The notes beneath the pieces are model-generated. The model was not told the origin of the DNA. It made no database searches and saw only the letters and a list, made by a program, of their open reading frames with translations. DNA of 64,000 bases from Trichodelitschia bisporula (taxonomy: Eukaryota). The stretch is taken from the NCBI GenBank assembly GCA_010356995.1, contig ML996690.1, positions 1,458,217 to 1,522,216 on the forward strand, given 5' to 3'. Of this stretch, positions 31,146-35,381 are shown in pieces (the stretch's first letter is position 1; every line of letters starts with the position of its first letter). The position numbers and the translations under genes were made by a program.

Positions 31146-33200
31146 ATGGCTTCTCCAGATAATCAAGTCACCCGCTCGGAGAAAGCTCTCAATCCAGAAA
31201 ACACACCTGCTAAGCCAAACGAAAAGGTTTCTTCTCGCTTCAGGACGACCGTCAGGAAAGACATGGATGACACGACGTTCCGTGAGCACCCGCACAAGCT
31301 CTGCAACTATCTGCTTCCGTTCGCATATTTTGTAGCGTAGTGGGAGAAACCGAGCACACTGAGCAGCAAACACGGCTGCGAGGCCGGTGTAATGATCGGT
31401 ATCTTCGAGAAAGAACCGTCAGCTCTGGCAAGCAACCCGGAAAGCGTGAATACTCACCGTCGTCAAGATGAAAGTCTTCCGTATGGCCACACCTTCTTGC
31501 AAGGCGTGCTTGTACGAAGTTCACCTTGCTCGAGAAAAAACTTGCCTGAGGGGCAGCTACAGAATTTGTGCGTGCAGCGGCCAAGTCCCAGCGTCATGTC
31601 CGAGGGACACCGGCCAGCGGCAAGACCACGCTCTCCCTGTTAATGCACCGAAATTTTTTCCAGAGCAACCAGCGGGTGGTCTTCATCCACAAATGGGACA
31701 CCGAAGTTTCTGCGTGGAATCATTTCGTTCGGTGCTGCCATGAGCAAGGATATACTGACATCGGCACCTGCAACATCAGAGAGGCCGACATTGCCTACCT
31801 CATCGATGACGCTCAGCTCACTTATGGCTCTGCTGACCTCTGGTATGGGCCGATCAAGACGCAAACCGCCTCGTATGTCGGCCCGCGGATCTGCCTCTTC
31901 TCGTCGTATGGAAGCCCTGTACAGGGTATTCCGTCGTGCGGGAATTGGACTCCAGCAACCCTTGCGCCCTGGAATCGTGTCTCCCTGTTGATTAAGGACG
32001 ACCCGTGTGCTCCGAAGGCAGCCTTGTTCTATAACAGGGCCGAGTTCGATGAAGTCGTTGACCGCTTCTGCTCCACCCCGCAGCGAGACTTCTCACTCGA
32101 CCCTAAGGCACGTAACGAAGTTTTTGAGTTGACGAACGGGCACCCCGGAGCGGTAAGCTCTATTCTAAGTTACATCTTCGAAGTAAGATCTTCTATTGAA
32201 CCCTTCACGAACGTCGGACTATCTGCTAACTAATCAAGCGCCTCAAACCGAGATTTCCTCTCCAGTCATCTTCAGTCGACTTTGATACTGCTTTCGGACT
32301 AATCAGCGATCACGAACGGATGCTTGCTTCCTTGGCTCGGTACCCTGTTGGGCAGTCTCTGCCTTACGCCGACCGTCACGAACGCGTTCAGGAACCACCA
32401 GTGGCAGATGTACTGCTGTCGGTTTTGTACAATGGGAGCGTGAAACAGACTGATGCTGAGCCGATACAGTACTGCTTCAGGCAGGGCTGGATCCAGGTGG
32501 AAGAGGTCAACAGAATGTCGGATTGCGTTTTTCCCTTAAAGCTGCATGCCTGGTAGATAATTCCGTCCCCAGCTTTTCAGAAACTAATCGATGTAGTTTT
32601 GTTCAACATGCCATCGCCAGCATCCTGAAGTTTTCTACGTTTCCGGATAGTCTGTACCCGAACGTCAAGGCGATTATACCTGTCATTGTCAAGAATATGT
32701 CAAGCGGGGTTCTCAGTGCTTGAACAAAAGGATTAAACGTCGGCATAGCCGTGGGTCGGTCGCTCCCCGAGGACGCGCTCAAGGTCGAGTTCATTCGAGC
32801 ATTCTGGAAGTTACGTTTGACTGCGCTCGTGGCCGAGTACGCCAACCGGTCCATCGGCCCGGGGTGCATCGACGTCTTCTTGCCGGCGCTCGGCTGGGCG
32901 GTTGAATTTCTTCGGGAAGGAGACCGCCTAACTTAGCACCTTGATCGCTTTCAACCGGGGGGGATGCATTACCCCTTTCTCCAGTCGGGTGTGATCAAAG
33001 ACTACATTGTTCTTGACTGTCGCTACACGCCTGGCCGCATCTGTAAGGATCGAGTTGAGCGGAATGTGTACATCTGCTGATATTTCTCAGGTTTGGACCA
33101 ACACCTGTGGAAGCTTGTCTTTGCGAGAGACTTTTCGAAAGTCCAAATCCTCGACGCGAGCTGCCAGCAGGTGGATTACTTTCAGTTGCTCTATGATTAA
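31146..33200 (+). pseudogene. P-loop NTPase + C-terminal PD-(D/E)xK-like nuclease (Crinkler/RHS-type NTPase-REase architecture), disrupted
   Basis: Walker A HVRGTPASGKTT, Walker B-like YLIDDAQLTY, LFSSYGSP, LTNGHPG; C-terminal PEDALKVEFIRA...GCIDVFLPALGWAVEFLREGDRL; in-frame TAG at 32934-36 and an apparent frameshift before Walker A; contains introns. 5' boundary uncertain. Confidence 0.7.
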
Positions 33201-33351
33201 TGAGGGCACGACGGATGCCGCAACCGCGGCTTGACGGTGGCGCTTGACGATGGCACTTGACGATGGCGTTATGGGTTACCCCGTTACGGTAGAGCTAGAG
33301 AGAATGCGATAATGATAGGGAACAAGCTCAGCCCGGAAGGGCTTGACGCCA

Positions 33352-33396
33352 TTGTAGAAACAGCAAATATCATGTTTATCGTAGCCTACGTGAGAT
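33352..33396 (+). repeat. Right copy of ~45-bp direct repeat (partner 30585-30629)
   Basis: See the left copy; about 80% identity by manual alignment. Confidence 0.85.
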
Positions 33397-33810
33397 TGGA
33401 CATTACCTTTGGGTGTTGGTAGATGAGAACATGACAATTGAAAAGTCGTGGCAGACTCTACTGCCCAGAAGCGGCAAAGACAAGGTCTCATGACTTTCCA
33501 GCCCCGCCCTGAAATCACGTGCGAAATGTTCGTACGTCACCACAGCGCCGATCGGCACTCGGGCCATCTCGTCGTGCGGGCGGCGAGAGTCAAAACGGAC
33601 AAAGTCAATTTTCATATCCCATCTCCGTCCAACGTCCTCTCTACTTCAACTCATCACCACAACCACTCTGTCACCTGCTATCAGTCTCTGTTTGCGACCA
33701 CCAACAACATCTGCAACCTGCAAACCTAGCTCTCGCAATCCCTCCGCTCAACCCCCACTCACCTCTACCCCACTCTTCAATTTCGCATATCGCCACCCGA
33801 ACTCGCAACC

Positions 33811-34496
33811 ATGTTCTCCCGCCTCATCACCCGCGTGCCCGCCATGGCCGCCCGCACCTCCACTGCCGTCAGCACTGTGCGTCCTGCTATCGCTGCACCT
33901 CGCACAGCAGCCGTGCGGCAGACACGGAGCTACCACGAGAAAGATAAGTAGCCCGAAGCCGGCCGAAGCCGGGCCGGTGACAACACCGCTAACACGTAGC
34001 ACTGCTCGATCACTACGAGCGTCCGCGTAACGTGGGATCTATGTCGCAGAAGGACACTGACGTCGGCACGGGGCTCGTCGGCGCCCCGGCATGCGGCGAC
34101 GTGATGAAGCTGCAGATCCGGGTCGACCCGGCGAGCAACACCATCAGCGATGTCAAGTTCAAGACGTTTGGGTGCGGTAGCGCAATCGCTAGCTCGAGCT
34201 ACCTGACCGAGCTGGTGCGGGGCATGAAGCTGGACGATGCGGCCAAGATCAAGAACAACGATATTGCGCGCGAATTGTGCCTGCCGCCTGTTAAGCGTGA
34301 GTTGTCATTGAGGGAGGGTTTTCTGTACGTGTTGCTGACCTGCGCAGTTCACTGCTCCATGCTCGCCGAGGATGCCATCAAGTCGGCCATCAACAACTAC
34401 TACACCAAGAACCCGCAAGCACGCAAGACCGATCTCGGCGGTACTAATGCCCCGCTCCCCAAGGTCGAAATTGAAACCGCGTCGGCGGCTGCCTAG
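33811..34496 (+). CDS. ISU1: Mitochondrial Fe-S scaffold Isu1/IscU
   Basis: Presequence MFSRLITR..., YHEK/VLDHYERPRNVG, GAPACGDVMKLQI, FKTFGCGSAIAS, LPPVK/LHC; introns 33944-34002 (AT-AC) and 34297-34347. Confidence 0.97.
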
Positions 34497-35381
34497 ATTG
34501 CTACATCAAGGAAACGTTACGCAAGTGGGCGAAGATTGTATGTAAAATCGGTGGAGAGTGGCACTCTCGTATCATCTCTGGCGTTGGCGTCGTGCTGCGG
34601 GTGGGCTTTTTTTGCGGCTCCTTTGGTGGCGGGAGGAGGCTCGACAGGCTTTTAGCGGGCTACCTATGTTTACGGTAACATGCGCTTTTCGAGGTGGCTC
34701 GGATGTTTCAATATCAATTGCCTTGCCTTGCGGCACGTTTGAAAGAAGTTCGGACTGAGCTGAAGTGTACATACTTACCTCTACCAACTTCGAGTCGCTT
34801 GTTGCGTGCAGTACGGGTAGCCAAATGTGTAGGCGTGCGAGCTATCTGCTCAAGCCGGATATATTGAATGACACGTACATTCGTACTGGCCCTGGCGATG
34901 CAAATCTGGATGGAAGGTGAACGTGAGAGGCAAGGCCAGGTGTGCGACGGCTTCAATACCGTCCCACCGGCTGGGTCGCCCGACATCACGCCACCCTTTT
35001 CATCCTTGACGCTGCGATTCATGGGTTGCGTGCAAATAATTTGTTCCGACCTGGAGGTATTCCATTAACATGCAAGCGAAACGGTTTGTTCACCTATGTG
35101 CCATGGTATCCCTTACGCAGACTAATAATGCGAATACTCATGGCTCATTCTATCCATTTTGCCATTTGGCTTGGCTATTTGTGCTGCAACGGCTGGCGAG
35201 GCCCTCCATGTTCACGACGCACTACATCTGCAGTGCAAGCTGTCACTGGGCAATTCACGCACTAGGATTTCACGACACCAAGTTCATCATCGCAGGCCAT
35301 TTCGTGCATTCCTTGGTACTAAGCTCTATGATCTATACCGAACGCATCCAACAAAGGCCACACATAGCCAAAGCAACCAGC

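Follow-up and report, generated by a model that had tools for sequence, protein, structure and literature searches.

A deeply conserved U2-type AT-AC intron in the ISU1 gene of Trichodelitschia bisporula

The first intron of the Fe-S scaffold gene ISU1 in Trichodelitschia bisporula begins with AT and ends with AC, and is a newly described, deeply conserved U2-type AT-AC intron, a member of a rare class. Its exact joint is found in RNA, its removal yields the conserved N-terminus of the protein, its internal signals are those of ordinary fungal introns, and its ends recur at the same codon in three further fungal genomic loci. The best explanation of the observations as a whole, to which we assign a probability of roughly 0.85, is that of an old and constitutive intron which is removed by the major spliceosome and kept in place by a barrier to the conversion of its ends. 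The junction itself is already annotated, being used by the public protein model of this species (P0003) and shared by several public models with RNA support. In the literature searched, supplementary gene lists aside, we found no description of an AT-AC intron in ISU1 or of its conservation.

Results

Gene structure and product

On the forward strand of the window, by which we mean the whole analysed stretch of 64,000 nucleotides, positions 33811-34496 hold what its sequence identifies as the mitochondrial Fe-S scaffold gene ISU1/IscU, of single-copy type, of a Dothideomycete. The gene runs from an ATG at 33811 to the stop codon TAG at 34494-34496 and is divided by two introns (Table 1); the frame encoding LDHYERPRNVGSM... 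is open from 33993 on. The best protein match is a 191-aa public model, 'hypothetical protein EJ06DRAFT_324190 [Trichodelitschia bisporula]' (P0003), which agrees with the spliced product in 44 of 44 residues of exon 1, in Val45 and throughout exons 2 and 3. The query of this comparison read through intron 2, and its 17 intron-2 residues were set aside. Scored with TIGR01999 iscU, P0003, which equals the spliced product of the window, reaches 207.6 bits against a cut-off of 192.4 and so belongs to the IscU family. It matches yeast Isu1 (5t0v) with an E value of 7e-59 and human ISCU with an E value of 4e-53. The three Cys motifs GAPACGD, FGCGSA and LHCSML are identical in the alignment with these two proteins, and Val45 is aligned with the Val of both, inside YH.KV..HY. 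Intron 1 is positioned between the presequence exon and the conserved IscU core.

Table 1. Features of ISU1 in the window, and intron 1 in three other fungal genomic loci
Feature	Sequence	Positions	Strand	Description
Exon 1, coding part	window	33811..33943	+	mitochondrial presequence to ...SYHEK, then G (base 1 of Val codon); 44/44 residues as in P0003
5' splice site AAG/ATAAGT	window	33941..33949	+	U2-type consensus, A for G at intron position 1
Intron 1	window	33944..34002	+	59 nt, AT...AC, phase 1; RNA joint 33943->34003
In-frame TAG on intron 1 retention	window	33949..33951	+	unspliced frame
Likely branch-point sequence CTAAC	window	33989..33993	+	putative branch A at 33992, 10 nt before intron end
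Unused in-frame AG acceptor, TAG	window	33997..33999	+	3 bases upstream of the used 3' end; no AT-AG joint at the 5% threshold
3' splice site AC	window	34001..34002	+	RNA joint; AC/T invariant across 4 loci
Exon 2	window	34003..34296	+	TG of Val codon, LDHYERPRNVG...LPPVK, then base 1 of Leu codon
Intron 2	window	34297..34347	+	51 nt, canonical GTGAGT...CAG; RNA joint 34296->34348, GT..AG, in X3 and X4
Exon 3, coding part	window	34348..34496	+	ends at stop TAG 34494-34496
Intron 1	L002	1094-1198		105 nt; 5' G/ATAAGT; CTAAC 12 nt before AC; 3' AC/TG
Intron 1	L004	1071-1198		128 nt; 5' G/ATAAGT; CTAAC 11 nt before AC; 3' AC/TC
Intron 1	L006	1109-1198		90 nt; 5' G/ATACGT; CTAAC 21 nt before AC; 3' AC/TT

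Exon 1 reads ...AGC TAC CAC GAG AAA G up to 33943, and the next bases are ATAAGTAG. Left unspliced, the frame continues as ...SYHEKDK and meets the stop codon TAG at 33949-33951. The nearest GT, at 33948-33949, if joined after the TAG at 33997-33999, would by simple arithmetic leave 2+2 bases between codons and shift the frame. Removal of 33944-34002 brings G and TG together as Val, followed by LDHYERPRNVG, and removal of 33944-33999, an AT-AG intron, also keeps the frame and encodes Ala-Leu. An earlier note on this DNA, made from its letters, had described the end of exon 1, the immediate TAG in the unspliced frame, the frameshift produced by the GT at 33948 with the TAG acceptor, the recovery of YHEK-V-LDHYERPRNVG by the 59-nt removal and the in-frame AT-AG alternative, and each of these readings matches the sequence. 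Its broader claim, that the conserved IscU N-terminus requires an AT-AC intron, is borne out by the RNA joints 33943->34003 and by the public model P0003.

Within intron 1, positions 33953-33972 carry a 10-nt unit, CCGAAGCCGG, twice in perfect tandem. The predicted fold of the RNA from 33930 to 34015, including the GC-rich stem of this tandem repeat, is no better than those of shuffled sequences (z = -1.26).

The junction in RNA and DNA runs

Seven sequencing runs are listed, and four of them (X1, X3, X4 and X5), all in the form of contigs, were compared with positions 33600-34700. The DNA runs X1 and X2 stem from the same organism, and the assembly itself may have been built from them. X3 and X4 derive from one other sample of the same organism in one study, are labelled 'RNA? 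(a guess)', and have 0.85 and 0.79 of the sampled words, respectively; X5, X6 and X7 each have a small share (0.05). A single X4 contig of 2434 nt (depth 438.8) is made up of 33600-33943, 34003-34296 and 34348-34700, while X3 has a 59-nt contig over 33943/34003 (depth 2219) and a 793-nt contig over 34296/34348. Since both introns are removed, X3 and X4 carry processed RNA. X5, which comes from another organism, covers parts of exons 2 and 3 only, with less than 95% likeness, and both of its joints carry the mark 'between: not known'.

The joint at intron 1 in X3 and X4 'skips 59' and has the ends AT..AC with 'both' = 0; the cut position cannot slide, and the AT...AC ends are those used in vivo. 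At intron 2 the joint of the same two runs 'skips 51' and has the ends GT..AG. Among the joints listed at the 5% threshold for the X3 and X4 contigs, in which rare forms can be dropped, there is no AT-AG or other joint near intron 1. The AT-AC joint is the main, protein-coding junction of intron 1, and the junction foreseen from the letters is present in RNA as an exact 33943->34003 joint in two runs of one sample and one study.

The same contigs bear on a rival explanation, that the AT-AC ends are an artefact of a true G at 33944, of another junction such as the AT-AG one with Ala-Leu, or of another start. The AT-AG reading does keep the frame. Yet the X1 DNA contig spans the whole of 33600-34700 with 0 other letters, and the unspliced X3 contigs at 33914-33944 and 33915-34032 likewise have 0 other letters and show A at 33944. 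Because this A recurs in a second library, the contigs, as far as they go, rule out an assembly error at 33944; the G whose presence would have undone the proposal, or any other letter, appears neither in the X1 DNA nor in the X3 unspliced RNA contigs. The sole joint listed at this place is AT..AC, free of positional ambiguity, and a G at 33944 would leave the AC end unexplained. In addition, three other genomic loci have the same A and C, and in two of them, L002 and L004, AG is missing near the 3' end. We give the artefact next to no credence.

The X3 and X4 contigs that carry ISU1 continue for 1337 nt upstream of 33600, and the X4 contig extends 106 nt past 34700 (about 32263-34806 in all). 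Open reading frames lie on the + strand at 31550-32556, upstream of ISU1. The ISU1 transcript is assembled together with upstream material, either the transcript of a neighbour gene or a long leader.

Splicing signals

Compared by eye with the published consensus, the 5' splice site AAG/ATAAGT fits the U2 type except for the A at +1. Gould et al. 2016 (PMC5029451) give /ATAAGT as the consensus for the U2-type AT-AC introns known, and /ATATCCTT as the 5' site of the U12-type ones; the excerpted text of Sheth et al. 2006 (PMC1557818) defines type II AT-AC introns likewise. The latter counts 24 type II AT-AC introns in five species, with 0 fungal ones in the portion available, and mentions in passing that some xylanase genes of filamentous fungi are hypothesised to contain them. 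The branch region CGCTAAC is of the ordinary fungal type and differs from the U12 branch site TCCTTAAC. Neither this branch site nor the U12 5' site /ATATCCTT (ATATCC) is present in the window, L002, L004 or L006, and an Rfam search of the whole window gave 0 matches. As far as the excerpt of Larue and Roy 2023 (PMC10639083) goes, Ascomycota and Basidiomycota contain no convincing minor introns and have lost most or all minor snRNAs.

On its sequence signals and the literature on Ascomycota, intron 1 is classed as a U2-type (type II) AT-AC intron, and it is probably removed by the major spliceosome. The assignment to U2 rather than U12 had been made beforehand from ATAAGT and CTAAC, and stands when these signals are held against the published consensus and the reported absence of minor splicing from Ascomycota (PMC10639083, in excerpt). 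Removal by the minor, U12-dependent spliceosome would agree with the AT-AC ends and the short branch-to-3' distance, and with nothing else. It is at odds with a 5' site that is ATAAGT and not ATATCCTT, with a branch region that is CGCTAAC and not TCCTTAAC, and with the lack of minor introns and of most or all minor snRNAs that the same excerpt reports for Ascomycota, and we regard it as very improbable.

Conservation at the DNA level

Scanning metagenomes with exon 2 gave 80 loci, of which the six best (81-90% and 61% identity) were read; L007-L080, at 71% identity or less, lie outside the set read. Three of the six (L001, L003 and L005) are short contigs of 1060-1396 nt in which both introns are absent and YHEK-V-LDHY is contiguous, and these are presumably transcripts. 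The remaining three, L002, L004 and L006, are fungal genomic loci, and all of them (3 of 3; Table 1) have a phase-1 AT-AC intron at the same codon, so that the ends proposed for the first intron hold in these related loci as well. In a four-way alignment of these loci with the window, TACCA.GAGAAAGATA.GT and AC/T are invariant, and the 5' splice site is unchanged across all four except at position 4. The rest of intron 1 cannot be aligned among the four loci, and its length ranges from 59 to 128 nt. A GT-AG, GT-AC or AT-AG state at this site was seen in none of the four genomic loci.

L006 includes a 67-residue exon that shares 99% identity with the IscU model from the Pezizomycete Terfezia boudieri. 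The best named match of L002 exon 2 is a Physcia stellaris model, at 96%, exon 2 being too conserved to place the class. DNA-level evidence in named lineages consists of the window and the Terfezia-like L006, and the AT-AC state is found in four of four genomic loci including the window, in a Dothideomycete and a Pezizomycete-like fungus among them. The split between Dothideomycetes and Pezizomycetes is close to the deepest in Pezizomycotina. Judged by these sequences, the AT-AC intron appears to go back to an ancestor common to the two classes.

L006 has an extra 75-nt GT-AG intron at 1289-1363, of phase 1 and situated in the Cys codon of GAPACGD, which is absent from the window, L002 and L004.

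Homologous protein models

Public protein models carry traces of the same intron; the tallies that follow were counted by eye from alignments. Among 46 aligned homologue models, 18 read YHEK-V-[LI]DHY and 28 are wrong at the intron 1 junction, through read-through, another start or truncation. Sixteen of the 46 read on as YHEKD[K/M/N/D/R]... and re-enter the conserved sequence as x-L-[LI]DHY, and 12 are otherwise wrong or truncated at the junction (P0004, P0005, P0006, P0013, P0038, P0048, P0084, P0102, P0104, P0105, P0109 and P0115). An Asp after Lys means a codon of G, A and T or C, so the intron has A in position 1 in all 16 read-through models. Leu in place of Val before LDHY likewise means that the last base of the intron, directly ahead of the Val codon's T, is not G.

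In nine models (P0005, P0013, P0026, P0028, P0045, P0060, P0084, P0109 and P0250), the junk stretch contains Gln/Lys/Tyr-Leu-Thr 4-5 residues before LLDHY, residues that arise because the CTAAC branch site is read in frame. A conserved branch-to-3' spacing of intron 1 in many Dothideomycetes is suggested by these translations.

A second set comprised 32 homologues of other classes, of which 17 are correct at the junction, 9 are aberrant, and 6 start only at a Met past it, Lecanoromycete and Geoglossomycete models being among these last. Sordariomycete and Eurotiomycete models are correct at the junction, which is a statement about the proteins and does not cover the state of the DNA. The mispredicted models are consistent with an AT-AC intron that is widespread and escapes gene finders, and we infer from these mispredicted proteins that the intron is probably spread more widely within the Dothideomycetes.

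Four further sequences (P0248, P0291, P0292 and P0261) are genomic-looking open reading frames in which YHEKVLDHY is continuous with the upstream sequence; one of them, P0248, overlaps the Pseudogymnoascus model P0247. They run into intron 2 and therefore appear to be read from genomic DNA. On this reading of their sequences, intron 1 is absent and intron 2 kept in the Leotiomycete-like fungi from which they come.

Incomplete removal of intron 1

In X3, the unitigs at the 5' splice site have a depth of 3683 in the exon 1 sequence immediately before it, of 2219 when spliced, and of 700 and 627.8 when unspliced. Unspliced intron 1 accounts for about 22-24% of the junction depth in this run alone, by per-contig mean depths. 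The same run has no contig containing intron 2, and its 793-nt contig is unbroken across the intron 2 joint. Contaminating DNA does not explain the unspliced signal, because DNA would show both introns. X4, from the same sample, has the spliced form only. The depths of one run, taken per contig, weakly suggest that the removal of intron 1 is slower or less complete than that of intron 2. Retention leads to a premature stop, as the earlier note had stated, the TAG at 33949-33951 being in frame.

The earlier note had raised the idea of intron 1 as a regulatory element. On this idea, slow or conditional removal would set the dosage of Isu1, for example with iron or Fe-S status, while retained transcripts would hit the TAG at 33949-33951 and be degraded or yield no protein. 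The unspliced unitigs of X3 next to the lack of contigs with intron 2 agree with this idea, as does the deep conservation of intron 1; retention gives an instant stop in the window, L002 and L006, and a stop at the intron end in L004. The retention signal, however, comes from one run, one sample and one condition, and its contrast with intron 2 is weak, given that these are contig mean depths and that rare forms are dropped. X4 shows the spliced form alone from the same sample, the intron is dispensable in the Leotiomycete-like fungi without it (P0248, P0291, P0292 and P0261), and a two-step barrier to conversion explains the conservation equally well. A regulatory role is distinctly unlikely on this balance. 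If it were true, the AT-AC ends would owe their survival over hundreds of millions of years to their use as a built-in slow step, a tunable share of unspliced transcripts would be discarded via the stop, and filamentous ascomycetes would control Fe-S biogenesis at the level of splicing.

Discussion

Mechanism and persistence

We favour the reading of intron 1 as an old, constitutive U2-type intron, and the sequence of events would be as follows. AAG/AUAAGU would be recognised by U1 and U6 through the seven other consensus positions, with a mismatch only at position 1, and U2 would pair with the CUAAC branch site, 10 nt from the intron end. The second catalytic step would then pair the A of the first base with the C of the last base, replacing the usual G-G pair, and splicing would join G to UG into the conserved Val of YHEK-V-LDHY. 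The first and last bases of an intron interact, and where the first is A the last has to be C. Because the first-base A has this need, the AC at 34001-34002 would be used despite the in-frame TAG that ends 3 nt upstream.

The same pairing may account for the permanence of the ends. The intron is probably old, being common to a Dothideomycete and a Pezizomycete, and appears to have been lost whole in some Leotiomycete-like lineages. AT-AC most likely persists because conversion to GT-AG needs two matched changes, each of them harmful to splicing on its own, in an essential gene. The pair would be hard to convert, since the intermediates GT-AC and AT-AG should splice badly in such a gene, and the escape that is observed, loss of the whole intron, would follow from this difficulty. 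Dependence on the major spliceosome, the A-C pairing and the two-step valley as the reason for persistence are what we infer from general knowledge of splicing, and the literature is in keeping with the last two. Yeast can splice an engineered /AT-AC/ intron (Parker and Siliciano 1993, cited in PMC5029451), and Frey and Pucker 2020 (PMC7072748) report that conservation is stronger for AT-AC than for GC-AG pairs, and that AT-AC is far less common in fungi than in either animals or plants.

Origin

One origin compatible with the favoured reading is descent from a minor intron. An AT-AC intron of early fungi would have kept only its ends, its internal signals having drifted to the U2 type by the time the minor spliceosome disappeared from Dikarya. 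In favour of this, U12 introns typically have AT-AC ends, the age of the intron within Pezizomycotina is great, and the branch site lies 10-12 nt from the 3' end in three of the four loci. Human ISCU also has an intron at a similar position, where the presequence exon gives way to VVDHY. Against such a descent, no trace of /ATATCC or TCCTTAAC is left in any of the four loci, and a short branch-to-3' distance is normal for fungal U2 introns, in which it has a median of 15 nt and a peak at 11-14 nt (PMC4324775). A search of the literature for an ISCU gene with a minor intron or an IscU gene with an AT-AC intron found nothing relevant. We consider this origin possible but rather unlikely.

Relation to known introns

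AT-AC junctions are rare in fungal data sets. They make up 0.03% of SnowyOwl fungal models (PMC4084796) and 69 of 14305 junctions in Trichoderma (PMC4324775), and in Fusarium graminearum are contained in the 0.31% of 'other' sites (PMC3577648). The nearest counterparts of the ISU1 intron are animal U2-type AT-AC introns such as those of human SCN4A and SCN5A, which, in the excerpt of PMC1557818, share the AT...AC ends, the /ATAAGT site, an ordinary branch site and borders conserved over long distances. The ISU1 case differs from these in its occurrence in an ascomycete, from a group without the minor spliceosome, in its host gene, an Fe-S scaffold, and in its very short intron (59-128 nt across the four loci). 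The engineered /AT-AC/ intron of yeast and the nested AT-AC intron of yeast RPL30 (PMC5029451, portion available) resemble it in the use of the major spliceosome of an ascomycete and in the matching of first and last bases, A with C. In RPL30, however, the same source describes the AT-AC form as a side product of 1-2% with a 5' site unlike /ATAAGT, whereas in ISU1 AT-AC is the main coding junction and /ATAAGT its 5' site.

U12-type AT-AC introns are similar in their terminal dinucleotides and in a branch site near the 3' end; the ISU1 intron is without /ATATCCTT and TCCTTAAC, and its host lineage is without the machinery. Fungal GC-AG introns are comparable in that a non-canonical border is offset by an otherwise strong 5' site and often missed by gene finders. 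GC-AG, however, is one change away from GT-AG and switches with it readily, while AT-AC takes matched changes at both ends.

With the ISU1 intron, an essential gene supplies a natural and constitutive case of the required match between first and last intron bases (A with C), within a lineage that has the major spliceosome only. On its way to the AC, the spliceosome here skips a UAG that is in frame and three bases upstream. The intron may serve as a marker and a test case of how non-canonical borders freeze, or escape only via loss of the whole intron.

Annotation of ISU1

The intron also has a practical cost, as pipelines that allow AT-AC only with RNA support misdescribe the N-terminus and the targeting sequence of a core mitochondrial protein. 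Intron 2 presents a separate difficulty. It is in frame and free of stops, and its retention would add 17 residues between LPPVK and HCSML. Public models including P0004, P0005, P0006, P0007, P0008, P0010, P0019, P0104 and P0109, among others, translate through their own intron 2, and such read-through, as judged from the protein sequences, is a second recurrent annotation error of ISU1.
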